DNA of 64,000 nucleotides. It comes from Desulfobacterales bacterium. GTDB lineage: Bacteria > Desulfobacterota > Desulfobacteria > Desulfobacterales > UBA5852. Made by a program: the position numbers and the translations under genes. The DNA lies in assembly GCA_963674755.2 (NCBI GenBank), contig CAXXVS010000001.1, forward strand, positions 352,001 through 416,000, given 5' to 3'. Of the stretch, positions 7,279-64,000 are shown piece by piece (within the stretch, counting starts at the first letter, position 1; each line of letters opens with the position of its first letter). Under the pieces are notes generated by a model that saw only the letters and a list, made by a program, of their open reading frames with translations, was not told where the DNA came from and did no database searches.

Positions 7279-9246
7279 ATGGAAAAGAAGGCAACCGTCT
7301 CCAAGAAGGAGATTGTCACCAAAGATGTGACCATTTGCGAATCAACCGCCCAGATGCTCGAAAAGGCCAAACGCGACGGCGTTGAGACCGCTTTCGACCG
7401 TGCGGCGAATATGAAAGCCTGCCCCATCGGGGCGGACTCGGCCTGCTGCAAGCACTGCTCCATGGGACCCTGCCGGCTGAATGCCAAAGCACCTTACGAC
7501 AAGGTGGGGGTCTGCGGGGCGACGATCGATACCATCATGGCCCGCAACTTCGCTCGTATGGTGGCTTCCGGCGCCGCGGCGCACACCGACCACGGGATGA
7601 GCATGCTGGATCTCTTCCGCGAGGTGGTCAACGGCAAGATCCTGGACTACGAGATCAAGGACGTCCAAAAGCTGGAAAGCGTGGCCCAGGAAATCGGTAT
7701 CGAAACCGAAGGCCGCAGTGCCAAGGAAATCGCCACCGATCTCTATGAGGAACTCGAGCGCACCTATGTCCAGGTGGAAGGTGAAATTCCTTTTGCCAAG
7801 CGGGTACCGCCTAAAACCCTCGAAACCTGGCGCAAGCTGGGCATCGTCCCCCGGGGCGCCATGCGGGAGATCATGGAACTCATGCACCGCACCCATATGG
7901 GCGTGGACCAGCACTATGAAAACATCACCAAACAGTGCAGCCGCACCGCTCTGGCGGACGGCTGGGGCGGCTCCATGGTGGCCACCGAGATTTCCGATAT
8001 CCTTTTCGGTACGCCTACGCCGGTGGCGGTGGACGTCGATATGGGCTGTCTCAAGGAAGATCAGGTCAATATCATCGTGCATGGCCACGAACCCAACCTG
8101 TTCGAATCCATGCTCGTATCGGTCAGCGACAAGGATCTGGTGGCCAAGGCCAAGGCGGCCGGTGCCAAGGGCATCAACCTGGTGGGCATGTGCTGCTCCG
8201 GGGCCGAAATGATGTCGCGCCACGGGGTCCCCCATGCCGGAAACTTCATGTCCACCGAAGCGGTGCTGGTGACCGGGGCTGTGGATGCCATGTGCGTCGA
8301 CGTCCAGTGCATCAAGCAGGGCCTCGTGGCGGTGGCGGACTGCTATAAAACGCCTTTGATTACCACCAACCCGCGCTGCCACATCGAGGGTGCCGAGCAT
8401 GTCGAGTTCCACGAGCATGATCCGCGCGATTGCACCGACACCATGGTCCTCAAGGCCATTCACCGTTTCGGGAACCGCACCGCCCAGATCGAAATCCCCA
8501 AACACAAAAGCACCGGCGTGCACGGGTTCTCCCACGAATACATCAACTACATGCTGGGCGGGACTTTCCGGGGCTCCTACACCCCGCTCAACGACAACAT
8601 CATCAACGGCCGCATCCGCGGCGTGGCCGGGGTCGTGGGCTGCACCAACCCGCGGGTCAAGCAGGACTGGGTGCATGTCGAAATGGTCAAGGAATTGATC
8701 AAGAACGACGTCCTGGTGGTCCAGACCGGGTGCTCCCAGATCGCCCTGGCCAAGGCCGGCTTGTGTACCCCGGAGGCCGCGCACCTGGCCGGCGCCGGGC
8801 TCAAGGAGGTCTGCGAGACCGTGGGGATGCCCCCTGTTTTGGGATTAGGCTCCTGCGTGGACAACAGCCGCATCCTGATCGCCTGCGCGGAAATGGTGAA
8901 AACCGGCGGCCTGGGCGAAAGCATTGCCGACCTGCCCGTGGCGGGCGCGGCACCGGAGTGGATGAGTGAAAAGGCCATCAGTATCGGCCATTATTTCGTG
9001 GCGTCCGGTGTTTTTACCGTCTTCGGGGTGACCTTCCCCATCGTGGAAGAAACCAAGTTCCACAAGCATCTGTTCCAGGGCCTCGAAACCCAGGGCGTCG
9101 GCAAGTGGGGCTTCACTCCCGATCCCTATGAGATGGCCCAGATGATGATCGACCATATCGATGTCAAGCGCAAAGCCCTCGGCATCGACAAGGCCCGCGA
9201 ACGGGTCCTGATGGACATGAGCGACCGGCAGCAATTGTCGGCTTAA
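7279..9246 (+). CDS. cooS: Anaerobic Ni-Fe carbon monoxide dehydrogenase catalytic subunit
   Basis: CPIG..CCKHCSMGPC, CGAT, HTDH, HGHEP, MCCSG, VDVQC, GCTN, TGCS, GSCVD, SEKA. Confidence 0.97.
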   Translation: MEKKATVSKKEIVTKDVTICESTAQMLEKAKRDGVETAFDRAANMKACPIGADSACCKHCSMGPCRLNAKAPYDKVGVCGATIDTIMARNFARMVASGAAAHTDHGMSMLDLFREVVNGKILDYEIKDVQKLESVAQEIGIETEGRSAKEIATDLYEELERTYVQVEGEIPFAKRVPPKTLETWRKLGIVPRGAMREIMELMHRTHMGVDQHYENITKQCSRTALADGWGGSMVATEISDILFGTPTPVAVDVDMGCLKEDQVNIIVHGHEPNLFESMLVSVSDKDLVAKAKAAGAKGINLVGMCCSGAEMMSRHGVPHAGNFMSTEAVLVTGAVDAMCVDVQCIKQGLVAVADCYKTPLITTNPRCHIEGAEHVEFHEHDPRDCTDTMVLKAIHRFGNRTAQIEIPKHKSTGVHGFSHEYINYMLGGTFRGSYTPLNDNIINGRIRGVAGVVGCTNPRVKQDWVHVEMVKELIKNDVLVVQTGCSQIALAKAGLCTPEAAHLAGAGLKEVCETVGMPPVLGLGSCVDNSRILIACAEMVKTGGLGESIADLPVAGAAPEWMSEKAISIGHYFVASGVFTVFGVTFPIVEETKFHKHLFQGLETQGVGKWGFTPDPYEMAQMMIDHIDVKRKALGIDKARERVLMDMSDRQQLSA

Positions 9247-47207: not shown

Positions 47208-48080
47208 TCATACGCGGTGCGTGTCCTTCAGCGGCCGCTCCCCGGCCGTCCTGCGGTCGGGTTGTTTGCGGCGCACTTTGCGTTGAATCAGCCACCCTAG
47301 CAAAGACCTCAGTCCCTTCATACGACAGGCGATGACATAATGGTCCAGAAAGGCTTCCCATTGCGTATCGGTCCAAGGGGCGTGGCGGAAAAATTGGTTC
47401 AGATCCCGCAGGGCGATGACGAGGCGTGACGGTCGGCGCCGGGTCTTTTCGACATCGATCAGGTAAGGCCTTAGCTGCTGTTCGGGAAGTGCTGCGGTCG
47501 GCTTGCCCCTCTGGTACCCGCTGATGAGGACATGCTTGCCGTACAAGGCGCAGTGTTGGAGGCGATGGCGGTGCAGCCGGCCGATGAGGCTTGCCGTGTC
47601 CTGGAGGACCTGGCGGACTTCGGATGCAGGGCGTTTGCCCGTCAGCTGCATATAATCCCCGAAGGCGATACTCTGGGGCACTTCCCGGGTGATCAGAATG
47701 GCCTGCAGCGCTTTACCGGTCTGGCGTTCTCCATAATAAAGGACCTCCGGTGCGGCGACGGCGGCGGCATGCATATCCTTGAGGCGCTTGTATTCACGAA
47801 AGGCGGTCGGCCGGAGGCACCAGGGGCTCAAAAGGCTTCGGTAGGCATGATTCTCCTGGCGTTTGAGGTAGACGACGACGGGCTCCCCGGCCGATCCGGT
47901 CAACGTCAGGCTGCATACGCCGCTCCAACCCTGGCGGCGAAAATTAGGTTCCTCGACCCAGGGCGCGTCCAGCGACCAGATCGTTTCAAAGCTGTCGAGT
48001 CCATTGTGTTGCAGCAGGCCGCCGCCGGCAGATGCTTCCAGCAGGGAGTGGCCTTTAGGCCGGCTTTTTTTGCAGGACAT
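47208..48080 (-). CDS. InaA-family lipopolysaccharide kinase
   Basis: WVEEPNFRRQGWSGV, YLKRQENH, PTAFRE, HCALYGKHV, IDVEK; overlaps methyltransferase 3' end. Confidence 0.9.
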   Translation of the reverse strand: MSCKKSRPKGHSLLEASAGGGLLQHNGLDSFETIWSLDAPWVEEPNFRRQGWSGVCSLTLTGSAGEPVVVYLKRQENHAYRSLLSPWCLRPTAFREYKRLKDMHAAAVAAPEVLYYGERQTGKALQAILITREVPQSIAFGDYMQLTGKRPASEVRQVLQDTASLIGRLHRHRLQHCALYGKHVLISGYQRGKPTAALPEQQLRPYLIDVEKTRRRPSRLVIALRDLNQFFRHAPWTDTQWEAFLDHYVIACRMKGLRSLLGWLIQRKVRRKQPDRRTAGERPLKDTHRV

Positions 48081-48712
48081 AGAGTCTCCACATGGCGTAG
48101 AATTTAAGGAAATCGAAGTGGGCGGCGATGGTGAAGCCGGCCTGCTCGAATTCGGATTCGATCTGGCGGCGGTCCAGAACGATGCGGTTTTGATAGGTCT
48201 TCCGGGTGCGGCGGGCTTCCAGCTTGCGCCGCCGCCAGGCTTTGTAGTTGCCGTCCACCCAGAGGGAGAGGGCCACGGTGTGGCGGGTGACCCGATGGAA
48301 TTCCCTTAAAATGGCCAGGCGGTCTTCCGAACGGGTGATGTGGTGCAGCAGGCGCATGCAGAACACGTGGTCCACGCGGTTGTCCTCCAGCTGAATATCG
48401 AAGGCGGAGCTCTGGAACAGGGTGATGCGTTCGAGCAGGGAAGGCGGGGTGACTTCCCGGGCGACGTCCAGCATGGCGTCACTGTTGTCGGCGGCCAGGA
48501 TGGTCTGTTGGGTGGCACGGCTCAGCAGGGGCCAGAAGCGTCCCGTACCGCAGGGCAGGTCCAGGATCACGGCGGGCTTTCCGGCCAGGGCCAGGGCCTG
48601 GGCGGCCATCTGCTGCTCGCGCCAGTTGGAAAGCCGGCGGCCTATGGTGCGGCGGTGCTTTTCGTGGTAGTCGCGCGAGTGCTTCAGGGTGTATTTGGCG
48701 GAAAATTCCAGC
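48041..48712. repeat. ~670 bp direct repeat, copy B
   Basis: Near-identical to 32240..32911. Confidence 0.95.
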
Positions 48713-48726
48713 TCTGGTTTGCCCAT
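48055..48726 (-). CDS. Class I SAM methyltransferase (Orf222-like), paralog 4
   Basis: 223 aa, almost identical to paralog 2. Confidence 0.9.
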   Translation of the reverse strand: MGKPELEFSAKYTLKHSRDYHEKHRRTIGRRLSNWREQQMAAQALALAGKPAVILDLPCGTGRFWPLLSRATQQTILAADNSDAMLDVAREVTPPSLLERITLFQSSAFDIQLEDNRVDHVFCMRLLHHITRSEDRLAILREFHRVTRHTVALSLWVDGNYKAWRRRKLEARRTRKTYQNRIVLDRRQIESEFEQAGFTIAAHFDFLKFYAMWRLYVLQKKPA

Positions 48727-53579: not shown

Positions 53580-56348
53580 ATGACCGATCAGAATCAGTTG
53601 GTGATGAACGGCAATACGTTCACGTTTGAACCGGGTGAAACCATTCTCGAGGTGGCCCGGCGCCACAGCATTGACATCCCGACCCTGTGTCATTTGAAGG
53701 GCACTACCCCGACCGGCGCCTGCCGGGTCTGCGTGGTGGAGGTGGCAGGGGCCCGGACCCTCCTGCCGGCCTGTGCCACCCCGGCCGGCAAAAATATGGT
53801 CATCCAGACGGAGTCGCCCAAAGTGGTGGAGGCGCGCCGCACGATTATCAAACTACTCCTGGCCTCGGGCAACCACAATTGTGCGGCCCGCGGGTCGGAC
53901 GAGGGCGATTGGACCGCTTTCCAGCTGGCCGTGGAAGAAGGCGATCGGAGCGACCAGCTCTGCCCGGTATGGGGAGACTGCCGGTTGCAGGATCTGGCCT
54001 ACCGCTACCAGGTGACCGGCGAAGGACTCCCGGGGACGGTGATTCCTTATCCCATCGAAGATGTGAATCCCTTTATCGTGAGGGATTTTTCACGCTGCAT
54101 CCTCTGCGGGCGCTGTGTGCAGGCCTGCAACGAGGTCCAGGTCAACAAAGCGATCAGTTTCGGATTCCGGGGGTCGGAGAGCAAGATCGTGGCCGCCGGC
54201 GACAAGCCCCTCAAGGATTCCGATTGCGTTTTCTGCGGGGAGTGCGTTCAGGCCTGTCCGGTGGGGGCCCTGGTGGAAAAAAAGGTCCGCTACGAGGTGC
54301 GGCCCTGGGAAACCCGCAAGGTGCGCACCACCTGCACCTACTGCGGTGTCGGCTGCCAGATCCATCTGCATGTGCGCGACAACCATGTGGTGAAAGTAAC
54401 CGGTGTGGAGGACGTGGCACCCAACTACGGCAGCCTGTGCGTCAAAGGGCGCTTCGGATACCCGTTTATCGATGCGCCTGACCGGCTGACCAAGCCCCTG
54501 ATCAGGAAAGACGGCGAATTCAAAGAGGCTTCCTGGGACGAGGCCCTGGATTTCGTGGCCGGCAAATTGGCGGCCATCAAGGACAGCCACGGACCGGAAA
54601 GCATCGGCCTGCTGACCTCGGCCCGCATTACGAACGAAGAAAATTATGTGGCTCAGAAGTTTGCCCGGGCGGTGTTGCAAACCAACAATGTGGACCATTG
54701 CGCCCGTCTCTGACATAGCTCCACCGTGGCCGGTCTGGCCGCAGCCTTCGGCAGTGGGGCAATGACCAACACCATCGCCTGTGTCGAGGAAGCCGATGTC
54801 ATTCTGATCACCGGTTCCAACACCACCGAGAATCACCCGGTGATATCGGCCGGGGTCAAGCGGGCCGTATCGTCCGGACGGGCCCGCCTGATCGTGGTGG
54901 ATCCACGCCGCATCAAGGTTGCCGAGTTCGCCGATTGCTATCTGCGGCCCAATCTCGGTACGGATGTGGCCTGGATCAACGGTATGCTCAACGTCATCAT
55001 TAGCGAGAATCTGCAGGATGCGGCCTTTGTCGCGGAACGCACCGAAGCCTTCGAAGAAATGAAGGCCCTGGTGGCGAAGTATACCCCGGACTACGTGGAA
55101 AGCATTACCGGCATTCCGGCCGCGCAGCTGATCGAAGCCGCCCGGCTGTACGCCAAGGCCAAGGTGGGCAACATCATCTATTGTATGGGAATTACCCAGC
55201 ACACCTGCGGCACGGACAACGTCAAATCCCTGGCCAATCTGGCCATGCTGTGCGGCAACCTCGGCATGCGGGGCGGCGGCGTGAACCCTCTGCGGGGCCA
55301 GAACAATGTGCAGGGGGCCTGCGACATGGGCGGCCTTCCCAATGTGTTTACGGCCTACCAGCCGGTGACCAATGAGGATACCAGCCAGAAAATGGCCGCC
55401 GCCTGGGGGGTCGCGCACTTGTCCACCAGCGTCGGCATGAAAGCCACCGACATGATTCCGGCGGCCCACGACGGCCGCCTGAAAGCCCTCTATGTCATCG
55501 GGGAAAATCCGCTGGTGTCCGATCCGGACCTGAATCATGCCGAAGACAGTCTGGCGCATCTCGATTTGCTGGTGGTGCAGGATCTTTTCCTGACCGAAAC
55601 CGCCCGCAAGGCCGACGTGGTGCTGCCCAGCCGGTGTTTCGCTGAAAAGGACGGCACCTTCTCCAACACCGAACGGCGGGTGCAGCGGGTGCGCAAGGCG
55701 GTGGATGCTCCGGGGGAAGCCTGGGACGACTGGAAAATTGTGACGGCCATCGCCGAGCGGATGGGCTATGCCATGACGTATGCCGACAGCGAAGCCATTT
55801 TCGAGGAAATCCGCCAGGTGACGCCCAGCTATGCGGGCATTACTTATGACCGTATTGACAAGGAGGGGCTGCACTGGCCCTGCCTGAACGAAGAACATCC
55901 CGGCACGCCGGTCCTTCACAGCCTGCAGTTCACCCGCGGCAAGGGCCTGTTCCATGCCATCGAATGGCAGCCACCGGTGGAAGTGCCCGACCAGGAGTAC
56001 CCGCTCTATCTGACCACCGGGCGCATCCTTTACCACTACCATACGGGTACCATGACCATGCGTTCGGAAGATCTCATGGAGAGGGCGCCGGAGAGTTTTG
56101 TTGAAATGACGCCCCAGGATGCCGCCGCCCATGGTCTGGCCGATGGCGGCCGGGTCAGCATCGCCTCCCGACGGGGAGCCATCGAAGCCCGGGTGAAGGT
56201 TTCCCGCAAAGCCGTGGCCGGTACGGTGTTCATCCCCTTTCACTTCGCCCAGGGAGCGGCCAATAAATTGACCAACGCCGCCCTGGATCCTGTGTCGGGG
56301 ATTCCCGAATACAAAGTGTGTGCCGTTAAATTGACCCCGGCTCCCTGA
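53580..56348 (+). CDS. fdhF: Cytoplasmic formate dehydrogenase alpha subunit, selenocysteine-containing (UGA at 54711-54713)
   Basis: 2Fe-2S and 4Fe-4S N-terminus, CTYCGVGC, DHCARL-TGA-HSSTVAGL in frame, LRGQNNVQGACD, PEYKVCAV. Confidence 0.95.
54711..54752 (+). promoter_or_regulatory. Sec codon plus putative bacterial SECIS hairpin
   Basis: TGA followed ~15 nt later by GGCCGG-TCT-GGCC hairpin. Confidence 0.75.
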
Positions 56349-56372: not shown

Positions 56373-56410
56373 AAAAAGCCCCCGGCTTGAATTCAAGCCG
56401 GGGGCTTTTT
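56373..56410. terminator. Bidirectional intrinsic terminator (perfect 38 bp palindrome)
   Basis: AAAAAGCCCCCGGCTTGAA|TTCAAGCCGGGGGCTTTTT between convergent fdh and metV. Confidence 0.9.
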
Positions 56411-56487: not shown

Positions 56488-57162
56488 CTATTTTTCTTTG
56501 TAACGGGCCGCGTATTCGTCCTGCACGATTATGCGGCGGGTCTGGTTTTGCCACTGCATGGCCGGTTTGATTTTTTTGATGTCGTTCAGACGGTTTTGTG
56601 CTTTCAGGCGGTTGTAGATATCCTGCCATGCGCAGGGGATCTCGTTGCTGACCTCACAGTTGCCGTTATTCGTGCCGCCGCAGGGGCCGTTGAACAGGCC
56701 CTTGGCACAGCGGGTGATCGGGCAGATGCCGCCGGTATAGCCCAGCACGCATTCACCGCAAGCCCGGCAGCGCTCTTCGTAGACGCCGATATTACGATCG
56801 ATGCCGATGGCGATGGTGTTGACCGCCGGAAAGACGGGCTTGTCAGGATAGCGCTCCGCCAGCAGTTGTACGCCGGCGCCGCAGGCCATGGACATCAAAC
56901 CGTCGTAGCGGGCGACGCGCTGGTCCAAATCGGTCAGGAAAGCCTCGTTGCACTGCCGCTCGACGGTAAATCCGTCCACACGGGTCTGGCGATTATCGTT
57001 TTTCAGAGCCAGATTCAGTTTAGCGTTCAGCAGGTTGACTTCCTTCTGGCCGCCGGCCAGGCAGACGGATACGCAGCCCCCGCAACCGACATTCAGCACG
57101 CGGGTATAATTTTCAATCGCCTGCTTGATTTCTTCCAGGGGTTTTCTTTTTGCTTTTACCAC
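56488..57162 (-). CDS. metV: Methylene-THF reductase small subunit MetV (MTHFR_C domain)
   Basis: KPLEEI, GCGGCVSVC..GG, ERQC, CGAGVQ, CRACGECVL..TGGICPITRCAKGLFNGPCGG; GTG after GGAGG. Confidence 0.92.
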   Translation of the reverse strand: MVKAKRKPLEEIKQAIENYTRVLNVGCGGCVSVCLAGGQKEVNLLNAKLNLALKNDNRQTRVDGFTVERQCNEAFLTDLDQRVARYDGLMSMACGAGVQLLAERYPDKPVFPAVNTIAIGIDRNIGVYEERCRACGECVLGYTGGICPITRCAKGLFNGPCGGTNNGNCEVSNEIPCAWQDIYNRLKAQNRLNDIKKIKPAMQWQNQTRRIIVQDEYAARYKEK

Positions 57163-57199
57163 TTGCGACCTCCAAGGTGGATGAATTACGGATGCGTGT

Positions 57200-57613
57200 T
57201 TAGTTTCCCGCCCGGTGGCAGTCACCGCACATCTCGGGCCCGGACGGCTGGCCGGATTTGCGGACCGCGATATGGCACCCTATGCATTGGCGGTGAAACG
57301 CGTCCTGCAGATCAGGGTCCGTCTGGTCGTTGTGACAATTTGCGCACTGAATGGCCGGATTGCCTTCTTCCAGGGTATCCTCGTCCAGCACGTTCACCCC
57401 ATCCTGGTAATCGTGGTGGCAATCCAGGCACTCATAAAGTCCCATGTGCACTTCATGAGGGAAAATCACGGGTGACCGTTGCGCTTCCCCGGGGTTCCCC
57501 ATGCTCAGCTCGATTTCCTCCTCCTGGGCTAAGGCGACGGTCACCGGAATCAGGCCGATGATGGCGATAATGGCGGCTGCCGCCCATATCAGGGATCGCT
57601 TGTTCCACGTCAT
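57200..57613 (-). CDS. Acidic tetraheme cytochrome c3 (TmcA-like)
   Basis: Signal peptide, FPHEVH, four CxxCH (CLDCH, CANCH, CIGCH, CGDCH). Confidence 0.92.
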   Translation of the reverse strand: MTWNKRSLIWAAAAIIAIIGLIPVTVALAQEEEIELSMGNPGEAQRSPVIFPHEVHMGLYECLDCHHDYQDGVNVLDEDTLEEGNPAIQCANCHNDQTDPDLQDAFHRQCIGCHIAVRKSGQPSGPEMCGDCHRAGN

Positions 57614-57694
57614 TGCTGTTGCCGTACCTTTCTTTGCGGGCTTACCGTATGCTGAAGGCGCTTTCAATCGACTTGCCATTCGCAGGGGGCTCTA

Positions 57695-58090
57695 TTAAGC
57701 CGGTTGCTCAAGTTCGCTCCACTGGAAATAGACCTCCTGGGAGCGGCAGATGTCGCGCGCCAGGGCGATCATCTCGGGTATGTCGATGCCCAGCGGACAG
57801 TAGCAGCGTGTGCACAGCACGCATCGCCGCCACACAATTTCTTTGATTTCTTCGAGACCCGCCCGATCCACCGCGCCTTTTTTCTTGTAGAGCCTCCCGA
57901 TGGAATTGATAAACTTGTGGGAGGGCATGTAGCGGGGGTCCTTGTCGTTGACATGGTATAAAAAGCAGCTGTCCGCACAGAGGCTGCAGTGGGCGCACAC
58001 CCGCAGTGCGGTTTTCATTTTGTCCTTGTGCTGATCCAGCATGCGCCGGATTTCGTTCTGATCAACGGGAGCTTGTTCGTTTGCGCTCAT
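57695..58090 (-). CDS. 4Fe-4S dicluster protein (TmcB/DsrK N-terminal domain only)
   Basis: CAHCSLCADSC, CVLCTRCYCPLGID; 131 aa, no CCG domain. Confidence 0.85.
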   Translation of the reverse strand: MSANEQAPVDQNEIRRMLDQHKDKMKTALRVCAHCSLCADSCFLYHVNDKDPRYMPSHKFINSIGRLYKKKGAVDRAGLEEIKEIVWRRCVLCTRCYCPLGIDIPEMIALARDICRSQEVYFQWSELEQPA

Positions 58091-58115
58091 TGCTGTCTCC
58101 ACGGGTCGGCGGTGC

Positions 58116-58799
58116 CTATCGCCAAATGCGGCTTCCGCCGGCACCGAGGGTGTTCTCGTGTACCAGCACGAACCGGTTGATGAAAAAATAGGGCATATGC
58201 ACCAGCTTGGTGAATGGTATGGCCATCAGCATGATTTCGCCGGCCAGCATGTGCAGCACGATGACCGTGTCGTAGTCGAACAATTGATGGTAGGCCAGAA
58301 ACCCCGTCACAAACGGTGCGGTCGCTATGAGCAGCACCAGATAATCGTAGGGTGTCGAAATGGCGCGCACGCGGTCCAGGAAAATGCGGCGCAGGAGAAA
58401 GAAAATGCCGCCGGCGATCACCACGACGGTGAAGCCGTCGCCCAGCACTTCCGGCAAGCTGGGCAGGCTGGCATGCCAGGCCACGTCCAAGAGAACATTA
58501 TGTCCCAGAACGAAAAAGGGGGTCAAAACCAGGAACAGGTGGAAGATGGTGGTAACTGCCGTCATGATCGGGTTGACACCGACCACGCTCAGCCGCACCT
58601 GCTGCCACCATGTTAACACGGGTTCGGCCGGGGTCTCGTCTGGCTCTTTGGGCGGTTTGCCGAACGGGATCCGCAGGCGGAAAGGCTCTTTCGGCCGGCT
58701 TAAACGGTAAAAGCGGTAGATTTGATAAGCCGTGCCGAAGATGAAAACCAGAAAGGCGACCCACACCAATGGTCCCCTGATAAAATCGTACATGGACAT
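58116..58799 (-). CDS. Membrane cytochrome b of the NarI/TmcC/HmcE family
   Basis: GPLVWVAF, IFHL, LGHN, PFVTGFLAYH, LHMLAGE, PFTKLVHM. Confidence 0.88.
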   Translation of the reverse strand: MSMYDFIRGPLVWVAFLVFIFGTAYQIYRFYRLSRPKEPFRLRIPFGKPPKEPDETPAEPVLTWWQQVRLSVVGVNPIMTAVTTIFHLFLVLTPFFVLGHNVLLDVAWHASLPSLPEVLGDGFTVVVIAGGIFFLLRRIFLDRVRAISTPYDYLVLLIATAPFVTGFLAYHQLFDYDTVIVLHMLAGEIMLMAIPFTKLVHMPYFFINRFVLVHENTLGAGGSRIWR

Positions 58800-58881
58800 C
58801 TCCCGAATCGTTCAGCCCTTATGGCCGGGCGAAAAGGGCGCGCATGGCAAGACAGCCCGCTGCGATGCGGCGCCCCGATGG

Positions 58882-59802
58882 TTAGACTTGCGGTCGGGGG
58901 AGGACGCCGGCGCGCTCGGCGATTTCCGGAACCCGGTGCTCCCACTCGATGGCCATGAGATGCACGCCGGCAACGCCTTTCATTTCCTTGAATTCTTCAA
59001 TCTGTTCGCAGGCCATTTTGATGCCTTCATCGGCCTGTTTTTTCTTGTCCACTCCCTGGAGGCGCTTGATGATGTCATCGGGCACATCCATGCCCGGCAC
59101 CTTGCTCTTCATGTAGCGCGCCATACCGAGGCTCTTCATGGGGGTGACGCCGGCCAGGATATAAACTTTTTCGGTGAGCCCCATGTCGTTGGCCTGACGG
59201 ACCCATTCCCGCATCTTCTCCATGTTGTAGATGCATTGGGTCTGAACGAAATCCGCCCCGGCTTCCACTTTTTTGGCCAGGCGGTGAACACGCCACTCGA
59301 AAGGTTCCGCGAAAGGATTGGCCGCCGCCCCGATAAACATCTGGGGCGGGCCGTCGATTTTGGCGCCGCTCAGGAAAAGGCCCTCATCGCGCATGCGTTT
59401 GGTCATGCCGATCAATTGGATGGAGTCGATGTCATAGACGCCTTTGGCGTTGGGATGATCGCCGAATTGCTGATGATCGCCGGAAAGGCAGAGCATGTTG
59501 CGAATCCCGTGCGCATAAGCGCCCAGGATATCGGCCTGCATGGCCAAGCGGTTCCGGTCGCGGCAGACCATCTGGTAGTTCGGCTCGAGCCCCTCCTGAA
59601 TGGCGACCAGGGCGGCGGCCCAGCTAGACATGCGCACCATCGCGGTCTGGTTGTCGGTGATATTCACCGAGTCCACCATCCCTTTCAGTGGGGCGGCCTT
59701 TTCACGAACCGCTTCGACATTCGAACCTCGAGGTGGTCCCAATTCCCCGGTAAATGCGAAGTGCCCTGCGTTGAGAATTTTGGCAAGTCTGCTCTCACTC
59801 AT
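58882..59802 (-). CDS. metF: Methylenetetrahydrofolate reductase
   Basis: ELGPPRG, NITDNQ, CRDRNRLAMQAD, LSGDH, KKVEAGADFVQTQ, GVHLMAI. Confidence 0.95.
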   Translation of the reverse strand: MSESRLAKILNAGHFAFTGELGPPRGSNVEAVREKAAPLKGMVDSVNITDNQTAMVRMSSWAAALVAIQEGLEPNYQMVCRDRNRLAMQADILGAYAHGIRNMLCLSGDHQQFGDHPNAKGVYDIDSIQLIGMTKRMRDEGLFLSGAKIDGPPQMFIGAAANPFAEPFEWRVHRLAKKVEAGADFVQTQCIYNMEKMREWVRQANDMGLTEKVYILAGVTPMKSLGMARYMKSKVPGMDVPDDIIKRLQGVDKKKQADEGIKMACEQIEEFKEMKGVAGVHLMAIEWEHRVPEIAERAGVLPRPQV

Positions 59803-59895
59803 AAATTGTCCCTCTGTTCACAATGCGGTCCAGGCGTTGGTGATCAGTTGTTGCGACGTTAGCGGTCACGATGACCCTATAGCAGCTGTCAAGAA

Positions 59896-59931
59896 TTTTA
59901 AAATATGTCACAAGATCCGCCGTAGTGTCAA
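59896..59931 (-). promoter_or_regulatory. metF promoter with overlapping Rex-like box
   Basis: Minus strand TTGACA (59931-59926) then TTGTGACATATTTTAAAA (59913-59896), 15/18 match to TTGTGAAATATTTCACAA. Confidence 0.5.
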
Positions 59932-60317: not shown

Positions 60318-60617
60318 TTATGCCCCGATGAGTTTGACCAGCACACGTTTTTTCCGCCGCCCGTCGAACTCGCCGTAGAAGATCCGCTCCCAGGTTCCGA
60401 AATCCAAGCGGCCCTCGGTGATGGCCACGACGACCTCGCGTCCCATGATCTGGCGCTTCATGTGCGCGTCGGCATTGTCTTCGCCGACATTGTGCCGGTA
60501 TTGCTCCACCGGTGTATGGGGGGCCAGCTTCTCCAGCCAGACATCATAGTCGTGATGCAGACCGGATTCATCATCGTTGATAAACACCGAGGCCGTAATG
60601 TGCATGGCGTTGACTAA
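60318..60617 (-). pseudogene. yjbQ: Displaced 3' portion of yjbQ (UPF0047)
   Basis: [48 protein letters not shown]-terminal ~40 aa missing, replaced by integrase DNA. Confidence 0.9.
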
Positions 60618-62202
60618 GGCTATCATAAACGGCCTGAGAAAACTCAACCGACAGGCCCATTTCTTCGGCAAGCTGAACGGGATCTAAGCCCCCTTGCCGC
60701 AATAGTCCCTCCAAGCCGCCGAGCACGCCACGGATCGAATAGGCAACCTGGCCATCCTCGGTTTTCGACACATACACGCCCAGGCGTCTCCCCTCGGCAT
60801 CGTGGCCATCAAAAAAGGTTTGGACCAGCTTGCGTTTTTCTTCAAAGGTCATTTTGGCAATACGGCCCGGCCGGTTGAAAATCGATTCAAGCATCCGTTT
60901 GGCCAGGGTAGCCTGCTTTTTGATTTGCGCCTTTGTCGGGACGCCCTGGGTCTGAGTATCAATAGCCTCAACAGCGCTTTTTAGGGATTCAATCTGTTTG
61001 CGGATGGTGGTCATCCGCTCGGTGGCTTCCTCATCGGAGAGGATGCCCTTGCCTATGGCTTTGACAATGTTTTCCTTCTCGGCATTGGCAGTCTTCAATT
61101 CCTTTTGGAGGGTTTGCCGCTGGGCCAGCAGGCTATCAACCTTGGCGGTATCGGGAATGGCGCGGGCCAGGGCCGCCTCCAAACCGGTGGAATCTCCCGC
61201 GAGGGCAAACAGCTTAAAGAATACAGCCGTTTCAAGCTCATCCGCACGCACCCAGAAGCTCTCATCGCACTTCGCCTTACGCCCACGCGGGTGCCGGTAA
61301 TAGCTGGTGGTGGCGTGGTTAGTTTGGCCAAACATGGCATTGCCGCAGTCGGCGCAGAAAATCACACGGGATAAAAGGTATTTGTTTTTGTACTGGCCGT
61401 GATAGTAGGTCTTGTTAGCGGCGGCTCGCTTTTTGATCTTCTCGATGGTTTCCTCGGGCAGAAGCCGTGGAATTTTGATTATGACGGTTTCATCAACGGC
61501 AACCCGTTTAGCCCGATAGCGCACTTCCCAATTGTCGCCGCACCGTCTGGTCAGCGTTTTCCACAAGCTGACGTGATTCATCCCAAGGGTGGCGGCCAGC
61601 TTGGGGATTTGATCCCCTTGGAGGTAGCGCTCGGCGGCCCAGACTATTTTCCCTCGCTTTTCCTCATCAATACCCCAGGTCTCCGTCTCTTTATTGAAGG
61701 TGCGTCCGTAGGGAAGCTTGCCGCTGGTGGGCACGCCCCGTTTGGCGCGGGCGATGCGGTTGTTGATGGATTTGCGGGTTTGTTCCAGCGCCACAAATTC
61801 ATTGATTTCCGTCGCCATCCCAAGAAACAGGGTGTCCGCCGGTTTATAAAGATCGTACTCGCTCTGGCCGGCGAAAAACCGGACGCCGGCCTTGCGCAGG
61901 ATTTCCAAGCCCTGTTTGGAATTTCCGTTGTCACGGCTCCAGCGGGAGGCGTCGCACACAATCACGGCGTCAAAGCGGTCCCGGTCGGCATCCTTTAATA
62001 GCTGATCAAGCTTTTTACGTTCAAAGGTGGCGGTGGCATGTTCCTGGCCGCTGTAGCGCCAGGGGTCGTCAATAAGGTTACCGCCCAGGGCTTTGACCGC
62101 AGCGGTGATTTCTTCCTTTTGGGTCCGTAGCGATTCGCCCCTTTGGGCTTGGCCTTCGGTGCTCACCCTAACCAAGGGGGCGAACCGTAGTGATTTTTGC
62201 AT
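60571..62202 (-). CDS. Large serine recombinase (integrase)
   Basis: RVSTEGQ catalytic Ser, DASRWSR, PYG recombinase domain, YLLS..FCADCG zinc ribbon, coiled coil. Confidence 0.95.
60590..60635. other. Putative att junction of the integrative element
   Basis: yjbQ homology ends at ~60612-60617; AGGCCGT (60590-96) and ACGGCCT (60629-35) form an inverted repeat centred at 60612/60613. Confidence 0.7.
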
Positions 62203-62217
62203 AGTGGCCTCCCCTGG

Positions 62218-62634
62218 TCATTCTCCGATAATTTTCACGAGCACCCGTTTTCTGCGCCGACCATCAAACTCACCATAGAAAATCCGTTCCCAGGTGCCGA
62301 AGTCCAAACGGCCGTCCGTAATGGCCACCACGACTTCACGCCCCATGATTTGCCGCTTCATGTGGGCGTCGGCATTATCCTCGCCAACATTATGCCGGTA
62401 TTGGGAAACCGGTTCGTGGGGGGCCAGCTTTTCCAGCCATACGTCGTAGTCGTGATGCAGCCCGGATTCGTCATCGTTGATGAAAACCGAGGCCGTGATG
62501 TGCATCGCGTTACAAAGTACGAGCCCCTCCTTAACGCCGCTTTCATCGATGCATTTCTGAACGTCGGGGGTTATGTTGATAAAGGCCCGCCGGGTGGGCA
62601 CGTTGAACCAAAGCTCTTTGCGGTAGCTTTTCAT
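62218..62634 (-). CDS. yjbQ: YjbQ (secondary thiamine-phosphate synthase, UPF0047), intact copy
   Basis: [37 protein letters not shown]. Confidence 0.95.
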
Positions 62635-62778
62635 GGTTAAACCTCAATAGTTGGGCTTGGTTGGGGTTTAGCGCCGTCCAGATGCCTAAATCGGCTGCGT
62701 CAGATCGCGCAGGTTAAACGATCGCCAGGCGGCGCGAGGGGTTATATGAGCTAAAATCGGCCCTTAACCAGGGCGATG

Positions 62779-63468
62779 TCAGGCGTTGCCGCCCCAGAGG
62801 CCCTTGACCTGTTCGGCCAATTGTTCCTTTGTCACATCAGCATAAACAAGCGTTGAGGAAATGGAAACGTGGCGCAGTTGTTTTTGGACCGCACGCAGAT
62901 CCCGCTGCCGGGAATAAAGCTCAACGCCATAGGAGTGCCGCAGGGCATGAACGCTTTTGCCCGGCTCGTAAAGGCCGAGGCGGCGAAGGTATTTTTTGAC
63001 GATGAGTTGGATGGCCTGGGCAGTCCACGCCCCCCGCTGCCCGATGAAAAGGAAATCATCGGGGCCGGTGGGCTCGCTGCGGTCAGCCTTCCACCTGATA
63101 AAGGCTTTAAGGTGTTTTTTCAAGCTTTCCGGGATTACCACATGGCCGCTGATGCTGTCCTTCCCGTTGCGGACGAAAATAGCGCTCTCACCATAACCCG
63201 CCTTTACGTCCCCGCAGCGTAGGTCGGCCGCCTCGCTCACGCGCAACCCCGTTGATGTAAGCAAGTCCACCACCATCCATTCGCGCACAGCTGTCACACG
63301 GCCCTTTTGCTGACCCAGCTCAGCGGCATCCCGCACAGTACGACGCAGGAGGCGGATTTGTGGGGCGGTGAAATACTTAATGCCATCCACGTTGCGGGGC
63401 GGGCGCTTGGTTTGGACCGCCCGGCCGCGCAGGGCGCCTGGAAATGACACTACCTTTTGATGCTCCAT
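62779..63468 (-). CDS. Small tyrosine recombinase (catalytic domain only)
   Basis: TGLRVSE, GK, HALRHS, LRH, Y; 229 aa. Confidence 0.92.
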   Translation of the reverse strand: MEHQKVVSFPGALRGRAVQTKRPPRNVDGIKYFTAPQIRLLRRTVRDAAELGQQKGRVTAVREWMVVDLLTSTGLRVSEAADLRCGDVKAGYGESAIFVRNGKDSISGHVVIPESLKKHLKAFIRWKADRSEPTGPDDFLFIGQRGAWTAQAIQLIVKKYLRRLGLYEPGKSVHALRHSYGVELYSRQRDLRAVQKQLRHVSISSTLVYADVTKEQLAEQVKGLWGGNA

Positions 63469-63664
63469 GCCGGTTGCCTCCTTAATTTGATAAGTTTTCC
63501 TTTAAGTTTATGAGCAGTATTTTGCCAGGAAAGCATTGCCAGTTAAGGGTACGCAAATCACTTCTTAAAAGTTTTGGGGTAAATTATTTAGAGTTATAAG
63601 GCGACAAATGAGAGAAGTAAAGTAGTATTTAGAGCATATACCCGGACGGCTGTTTAGAATATAA

Positions 63665-63699
63665 AAGGCGCCGCGAGATAGTGAAATCCCGGGCGCCTT
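63665..63699 (-). terminator. Hairpin terminator after the partial basic protein
   Basis: AAGGCGCC..GGCGCCTT stem with T tail on the minus strand. Confidence 0.55.
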
Positions 63700-63717
63700 G
63701 TGCTGCTATGGGGGCGG

Positions 63718-64000
63718 TTACTTTGCCGGCGCCTCGATCTTGTAGGTGCCGGCTTCGGTTTTTTCCACCGTGCCGCCGCGTGCGGCAAGCTGCTTCAAAG
63801 CGTTGTAAAAAGTGCTACCGAATTTTTCCTTGATCTGCTTCATGGTAAAATTGCCGCTGGCCAAATGGGCTACCGCTTCGCTGGTCTTGCTGCCGGCGAC
63901 AAAACCAAAAATGTCTTTCTCCGGGGCCGGCTTGGCAGCGGCCTTTTTAACGGCGGTTTTGGTGGTGGCTGCTTTGGGGGCCTGGGCCTTGCTGTCTTTA
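63718..64000 (-). CDS. Small basic DNA-binding-like protein (Ala/Lys/Pro-rich arm plus winged-helix-like domain), 5' end beyond window
   Basis: Hand translation: KDSKAQAPKAATTKTAVKKAAAKPAPEKDIFGFVAGSKTSEAVAHLASGNFTMKQIKEKFGSTFYNALKQLAARGGTVEKTEAGTYKIEAPAK*. Confidence 0.7.
   Translation of the reverse strand, partial: KDSKAQAPKAATTKTAVKKAAAKPAPEKDIFGFVAGSKTSEAVAHLASGNFTMKQIKEKFGSTFYNALKQLAARGGTVEKTEAGTYKIEAPAK

Follow-up and report, generated by a model that had tools for sequence, protein, structure and literature searches.

An old and widespread metF–cytochrome–metV operon, best read as a cytochrome-coupled variant of methylene-tetrahydrofolate reductase

Membrane coupling of methylene-tetrahydrofolate (methylene-THF) reductase (MTHFR) is a long-standing question. 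Its MetF and MetV subunits have no NADH site and need an electron input module, in which the known types II–IV differ, and all four described types are soluble (PMC8760232); a review sees no sign of a membrane location in genome sequences (PMC8578096). Can a genome supply the missing membrane subunits? An operon at 56488–59802 of a 64-kb window, by which we mean the whole 64,000-nucleotide stretch of Desulfobacterales contig CAXXVS010000001.1 that was analysed, offers candidates for them. Mapping of open reading frames (ORFs) and domain searches placed five genes on the minus strand in the order metF, cytochrome b, Fe-S protein, cytochrome c3 and metV, with intergenic gaps of 82, 25, 81 and 37 bp from metF to metV, so the co-oriented, tightly spaced set described in the initial annotation of the window is confirmed in full. 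GC content at third codon positions is even across the five genes (0.73–0.75), a purine-rich stretch lies 5′ of each, and the GTG start of metV is preceded by GGAGG. From the comparisons described below we conclude that the operon is real, old and widespread, and best read as a cytochrome-coupled variant of MTHFR.

The two outer genes encode the enzyme. The metF gene (58882–59802, 306 aa; PF02219, E = 1e-38) specifies the catalytic flavin subunit, which is 64% and 60% identical to the two Hdr-type MetF proteins of the same genome, and metV (56488–57162, 224 aa; PF12225, E = 6e-37) the Fe-S small subunit; with their conserved cysteines the two belong to the MetVF-type family. Behind metF lies a TmcC/HmcE-like di-haem cytochrome b membrane anchor (58116–58799, 227 aa; PF02665). 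Its best NCBIfam model is TmcC (NF045723, 186.6 bits, below the equivalog cut-off of 240), followed by HmcE (166 bits), and the four histidines of the di-haem TmcC type (His87, His100, His183 and His201) are invariant in 61 of 61 relatives. By analogy with NarI, these presumably ligate one haem b on the cytoplasmic and one on the periplasmic side. The predicted structure (pLDDT 82.6) has the five-helix NarI fold, with NarI as the best fold match and EtfD a weaker one (9ojn, TM 0.49, E = 0.27).

The middle gene (57695–58090, 131 aa) encodes a stand-alone HdrC-like dicluster Fe-S protein (Fer4_8/Fer4_17, PF13183/PF13534). It was initially annotated as a TmcB-type ferredoxin domain lacking the CCG domain, and this stands: it aligns with only the N-terminal part (about the first 150 positions) of HmcF/TmcB, whereas TmcB with its CCG domain has about 430 aa, and it scores 84.1 of 735 bits against the TmcB equivalog and 41.9 of 400 bits against full DsrK with a CCG domain (NF045796). 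All eight cysteines of its motifs CxxCxxCxxxC and CxxCxxCxCP are invariant in 63 of 63 sequences, and in 62 of 62 relatives the protein ends 27–57 residues beyond motif two, a count that leaves out L051, L086 and ORFs with open ends. Fold searching placed HdrC on top at a weak E of 0.2, with no match at E ≤ 0.001, and a sequence search for solved structures of this protein or MetV found none, only SdhB at E = 0.009. The cytochrome c3 (57200–57613, 137 aa; PF02085) is an acidic tetrahaem type II protein with four CXXCH motifs, four further conserved histidines and a hydrophobic N-terminal signal or anchor (residues 8–26); the mature form has a pI of 4.5 and 21 D/E against 5 K/R residues. It resembles TmcA, scoring 82.8 bits with NF045722, below that equivalog's cut-off of 114.

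We examined the distribution of this arrangement by tblastn in three overlapping sets, namely 21 phylum loci, 46 named loci and 40 order loci, the last hand-picked across families from 86 order matches; kin genomes among them are not independent. For metV, linkage meant a position within 3.5 kb on the same strand. In these sets, in this order, metV stands beside the short Fe-S gene in 21/21, 41/46 (30/31 with full flanks) and 40/40 loci and cytochrome b in 20/21, 45/46 and 39/40; a c-type cytochrome occurs in 19/21, 31/46 and 36/40, metF adjoins the module in 18/21, 26/46 and 19/40, and acs genes share the locus in 7/21, 8/46 and 1/40. The synteny search across Desulfobacterota proposed with the initial annotation thus finds the set kept in other genomes of the phylum and order, which rules out a gene order unique to this genome. 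Writing F for metF, C for cytochrome b, B′ for the short Fe-S gene and V for metV, about six orders occur: F-C-B′-c3-V (here), c3-V-C-B′-F, C-B′-c3-V(-F), C-c3-B′-V, V-C-B′(-c3) and acs-C-B′-V-F-hmcA-hmcB(-hmcC). Unless the genes share a function, it is hard to see why the set would survive repeated shuffling. In seven loci (L044, L047, L048, L049, L081, L083 and L090) HmcA-HmcB-HmcC replaces c3, the order being cytochrome b, short Fe-S gene, metV, metF, hmcA (16-haem type), hmcB and, in five, hmcC. In four loci this variant immediately follows cooS-acsB-acsC-acsE. The one HmcA tested scores above the cut-off of its NCBIfam model, and the variant genomes tested (G202, G289, G261 and G108) gave no dsrA match.

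The short Fe-S form itself is old. Matches in 300 further genomes of the phylum had a bimodal distribution, with 21 short frames of 134–201 aa at 55–65% identity and nearly all remaining matches long TmcB/HmcF/DsrK-type frames at 52% identity or less. Of 16 family relatives, 14 have the short form, as do 83 of 400 order genomes (E ≤ 1e-42), about a fifth, and a profile search returned 925 short homologues at E ≤ 1e-30, a number that may include pieces of long forms. When 28 short and nine long (TmcB/HmcF-type) pairs of cytochrome b and Fe-S protein were placed in a quick tree, a branch with support 100 set all short forms to one side. Carriers include Desulfobacterales, Spirochaetota and one Planctomycetota record. 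Judged by its sequences, the short Fe-S protein is one old clade of single origin, and this, together with the conserved end point and invariant ligands, excludes the recent truncation of tmcB that the initial annotation had allowed for.

Cultured organisms carry it too. The protein named TmcB2 in D. autotrophicum HRM2 (ACN17555.1, 133 aa) is 66% identical to the short Fe-S protein here, and CCK82375.1 of Desulfobacula toluolica falls in the same family by protein sequence, so the question of membrane coupling is directly testable. At L068, from a named relative with an Fe-S protein identical at 113 of 133 positions, the order is C-B′-c3-V. According to the HRM2 genome paper there are two TmcBCA clusters, with the MetV link unmentioned in the text examined; a 'MetF-ABC' label in the legend of that paper's Fig. 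1 is unexplained and could not be tied to the module. TmcB2 of D. multivorans has a size of 50 kDa (PMC5109826) and is therefore a different, full-length copy. Second 'Tmc' copies such as that of HRM2 are flagged here as mis-annotated.

Which of the two enzyme subunits belongs to the module? All 21 module MetVs rank among the 22 best matches, self excluded, in 301 genomes, and in 13 of 21 carriers the module holds the sole MetV match at E ≤ 1e-30. A tree of 77 rows unites the 60 module MetVs in a single clade (support 100/97; L096, a module locus, carried the label 'other'), whose sister is a MetV type sitting with HdrA-like genes. Two residues mark the module clade: Q39 is found in 95% of 37 module rows vs 0/13 others, and F157 in 92% vs 1/13. 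The metF product groups with other module MetFs, in a group that also holds MetFs paired with the sister MetV type. Eleven of the genomes tested have a module without metF (G418 was left out, as its module includes metF), and three of them, all of one family (f9), have an orphan module-clade metF elsewhere; these three are the true orphans among seven rows labelled 'ORPH' in the MetF tree. By these sequence relations MetV is the constant, dedicated partner and MetF the less exclusive one, which suggests that MetV acts as an adaptor selecting the electron partner.

Several other arrangements of these subunits were seen. At L129 (3915–8298), L130 (8191–14169), L200 and L209, the sister MetV type and a module-clade MetF are followed by two short HdrA-like genes of about 380–405 aa and 520–530 aa, the longer with an MvhD domain; this layout on MetVF resembles QmoAB and differs from HdrCBA-MvhD. 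A fused MetF-MetV of about 520 aa lies just downstream of metV in L041, L042, L043 and L046 (two families), with two copies in L046. The 882-aa database protein P0204 joins a MetV domain to a pyridine nucleotide-disulfide oxidoreductase, possibly another input module for MetF.

Taken together, the near-constant metV, the set kept intact in about six orders, the MetV clade, the branch of short Fe-S and cytochrome b pairs, the proximity to acs genes, acsB in 19 of 22 carriers, the parallel version with HmcA and the orphan module-clade metF of three genomes support reading the operon as a membrane-bound, cytochrome-coupled MTHFR whose electron wire docks on MetV, in effect a fifth type, and we consider this reading likely. 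Its single origin would lie in a Tmc/Hmc-type conduit that lost the DsrC- or thiol-reacting CCG domain and recruited MetV(F). On the cytoplasmic side, electrons would pass between methylene/methyl-THF, the MetF flavin, the Fe-S clusters of MetV and the short HdrC-like Fe-S protein; in the membrane part they would move between the latter, the two haems b and the periplasmic acidic c3, which would exchange them with the periplasmic cytochrome pool (hydrogenase, formate dehydrogenase, Qrc/Tmc/Dsr). Binding of the short Fe-S protein by cytochrome b would follow the example of TmcCB and has a natural counterpart in one cytochrome b–short Fe-S fusion without CCG (P0192, a cluster of four), which could stem from simple stop loss. 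The short Fe-S protein would dock on MetV, and c3 would form the outer terminus. A structure prediction for MetV with the short Fe-S protein gave ipSAE values of 0.10 and 0.01 (mark 0.32) with no controls folded and is used neither way. The initial annotation had MetVF replacing the CCG domain as the catalytic head; the short Fe-S protein without CCG and the conserved MetV and MetF partners make this the best interpretation, with the amendment that MetV rather than MetF is the constant part.

The reported potentials are −200 mV for methylene/methyl-THF, −74 mV for menaquinone and −200 mV for c3 (PMC8578096, PMC6895022). With the couple at about −200 mV, the reaction can probably run both ways and is probably electrogenic. 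Were electrons to enter from periplasmic H2 or formate, their flow would be exergonic, separate charge and yield proton-motive force during CO2 fixation, a route corresponding to the cytochrome b model that PMC8578096 reviews; in the outward direction, aided by the membrane potential, the wire would carry off methyl-THF electrons while acetyl-CoA is oxidised, an exit that has been sought for acetate oxidisers (PMC6895022). As the direction of main use, outward flow seems to us as probable as the other two options combined, inward flow and use both ways, which we rate alike. If the reading is correct, acetyl-CoA oxidation and CO2 fixation would have a different energy balance in roughly one in five of the order genomes sampled and in several uncultured anaerobic lineages. 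A bolder version, which we put forward tentatively and at somewhat less than an even chance, sees a fifth class of transmembrane, electrogenic MTHFR in which MetV is an interchangeable adaptor linking one MetF clade to an Hdr- or cytochrome-type wire that ends on c3 or 16-haem HmcA, serving energy conservation on H2/CO2 and as a reverse-electron-transport exit in uncultured, non-sulfate-reducing, probably syntrophic Wood–Ljungdahl bacteria.

How does the module relate to known systems? With TmcABCD and HmcABCDEF it shares a NarI-family di-haem cytochrome b, an HdrC-like ferredoxin domain, an acidic tetrahaem c3 or HmcA-B-C, and the layout of a periplasm-to-cytoplasm conduit. Unlike Tmc it has neither a CCG domain nor TmcD, there being no fifth Tmc gene in the unit, and unlike both systems its three subunits fall below the NCBIfam cut-offs, form their own clade, are linked to metV and metF and occur in many carriers without dsrA. 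The type IV MTHFR MetVF-HdrCBA-MvhD of Moorella and Thermacetogenium likewise has a co-encoded input module including an HdrC-like protein, and a proposed tie to energy conservation (PMC8760232, PMC6895022). The present unit differs in having no HdrA, HdrB or MvhD, its input being a membrane cytochrome b and a periplasmic cytochrome; hdrCBA and mvhD with metVF are found elsewhere in the genome (C2:1424–1432 kb and C3:1295–1303 kb). Nor does it belong to type III, as no rnfC2-like ORF lies beside metVF between the promoter-like site and the terminator described below. By sequence, then, the module is Tmc/Hmc-like on the membrane side and type IV-like on the enzyme side, and a member of neither. 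EtfD/DUF224 ETF:menaquinone oxidoreductase also joins a NarI-like cytochrome b to an Fe-S domain, but it is one 742-aa chain with ETF, not MetVF, as its partner; its Fe-S domain takes electrons from the soluble flavoenzyme, and it has CCG domains and is not known to have a c-type cytochrome. MTHFR has been placed at the terminus of a membrane chain before, in the acetogen chain from hydrogenase through cytochrome b (Kamlage and Blaut model, reviewed in PMC8578096) and in the quinone-linked enzyme proposed for T. phaeum (PMC6895022). Those models, as set out there, have no membrane subunit encoded beside metVF, whereas here the genes are present, and in other phyla. The linkage of metVF to cytochrome b is undescribed in the literature searched, although subscription papers, Pereira et al. 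2011 and some supplements may mention it.

While acsB is found in 19 of the 22 carriers, dsrA passes the cut-off in five, a sixth has it in two parts on separate contigs, and 16 of the 22 phylum-set carriers (drafts 84–100% complete) gave no dsrA match; the module therefore follows the Wood–Ljungdahl pathway, not sulfate reduction. The role first suggested, an acceptor for methyl-THF electrons in complete-oxidising sulfate reducers, proves too narrow, and the sulfate-reducer framing gives way as well, since carriers reach into Spirochaetota and Planctomycetota and most of the order does without the module. Eleven of the 16 dsrA-less carriers have a match to FDH-N or a hydrogenase small subunit. 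The source genome holds dsrA, acsB, QrcD, a periplasmic-type NiFe hydrogenase and nine c3-family matches, and its acs cluster has no metVF adjoining. It carries two Hdr-type metVF sets (C2:1424397–1431745 and C3:1295504–1303455). In one of these, hdrA is preceded by an additional, divergent metF-like gene (34% identity); the last gene of the other is FrhB-like and is seen again in several relatives. We also noted a cytochrome bo3-type oxidase cluster with a haem O synthase-like UbiA gene, recognised by eye, in this sulfate reducer (C3:2731827–2735710).

Several observations weigh against a cytochrome-coupled enzyme. Purified MetVF enzymes are mostly soluble (PMC8578096, PMC8760232), and the near-identical contigs of the one RNA run reach only metF. 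A c-type cytochrome is missing from 6/31 and 3/35 fully flanked loci, and five of the 16 dsrA-less carriers gave no match to a periplasmic-type hydrogenase small subunit or FDH-N. The order loci keep metF beside the module in only 19 of 40 cases; five of the 11 genomes with a metF-less module pair the module-clade MetF with a different MetV and with HdrA-like or Fe-S neighbours, and three, all drafts, have no MetF above 66% identity. MetF is thus, by sequence, not dedicated to the module, and its being elsewhere or shared counts against a fixed five-subunit complex everywhere. A fusion of the Fe-S protein with MetV was not found, in a weak search of which one part covered only proteins of at least 413 aa.

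Some of these points would suit a menaquinone terminus, in which MetVF is wired to the quinone pool at cytochrome b, acting as an EtfD/NarI-like quinone reductase, and c3 is accessory. That reading keeps the membrane link and differs in the terminus; the anchor has a NarI/EtfD fold, of the three inserted parts the c-type cytochrome is the one most readily lost, the step from methyl-THF (−200 mV) to menaquinone (−74 mV) is downhill (PMC8578096, PMC6895022), and mqnA/D are found in 15 of 22 carriers. Yet most loci retain the c-type cytochrome, another periplasmic cytochrome system is present where c3 is lost, and the closest families are TmcC and HmcE rather than NarI. Moreover, the source genome and four congeners (G301, G304, G305 and G310) gave no match to mqnA/D or mqnE, and the source genome none to mqnC, menB or menD, although a menG-menA-like pair (C2:500920–502532, judged by eye) occurs there together with QrcD, and the source genus may rely on menaquinone ring salvage or an unrecognised ring pathway. 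On balance we find a quinone terminus unlikely. No better do we rate a soluble MetVF that is merely co-regulated with the conduit and receives its electrons through a diffusible carrier such as ferredoxin. Type II MetVF enzymes accept electrons from reduced ferredoxin in vitro and are cytoplasmic on purification (PMC8760232), and metF often lies elsewhere, but a soluble carrier does not account for metV remaining right next to the module despite the shuffles, or for the module's own MetV clade with Q39 and F157; there is also no recurrent ferredoxin gene among the neighbouring ORFs of at least 100 aa that were clustered, a size at which small ferredoxins would escape. A degenerate or split second Tmc copy that serves DsrC with its CCG domain in trans and is only incidentally linked to metVF, as homology to TmcB/HmcF and the HRM2 annotation might suggest, is very improbable and already largely refuted by the distribution, given the many carriers without a dsrA match, the absence of a recurring CCG gene among module neighbours, the conserved Fe-S end point and ligands, the intact tmcDCBA kept elsewhere in the source genome (with a tmcD-like gene, by position and size, with the cluster at C1:1245109–1246386) and the near-absolute metV linkage.

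The borders and integrity of the operon were inspected in the window. A sigma70-like promoter candidate (TTGACA-18-TG-CATATT, 59902–59931, minus strand), a match to consensus only, lies about 100 bp 5′ of metF, and a bidirectional intrinsic terminator candidate (56373–56410, a 17-pair hairpin with T-runs on both strands) is common to the metV unit and the convergent fdhA gene. Both are only suggestive as operon borders, because the pattern scan of the window gave three promoter-like and five terminator-like sites where chance alone predicts 1.8 and 5.1. Most of the operon is covered by DNA contigs from two further public runs (56510–58975 and 56677–59139, 14–15 differences), which rules out an assembly artefact. 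An RNA-library contig with two differences over 59678–59871 is a weak hint for the promoter candidate, and one metatranscriptome run with a small share yielded near-identical contigs for metF and its leader alone.

As initially annotated, the window contains CooS (about 7327–9243; genome C1:359327–361243) and a formate dehydrogenase, whose cytoplasmic NuoG-like alpha gene fdhA (53580–56348) converges on the module and has an in-frame TGA (54711–54713, context CARL*HSS) that probably encodes selenocysteine. It adjoins the module in 11 examined loci, ten from close relatives (L051–L062) and the eleventh from a spirochaete; being convergent and kept mainly in close kin, it is no evidence for a role of the module, and we rejected it as part of the unit. 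The same was decided for an integrated element upstream of metF (60318–63999). This carries a serine recombinase with resolvase domain and Zn ribbon (60571–62202) flanked by a partial (60318–60671) and a whole (62218–62634) yjbQ-like copy, the latter followed by a tyrosine-recombinase-like ORF recognised by eye (62779–63468), and loose contig ends at about 60608–60614 in other runs suggest strains without the element. Farther away, at 47208–48726, a lipopolysaccharide-kinase-like (InaA-type) ORF and a class I methyltransferase resemble, by eye, gammaproteobacterial genes.

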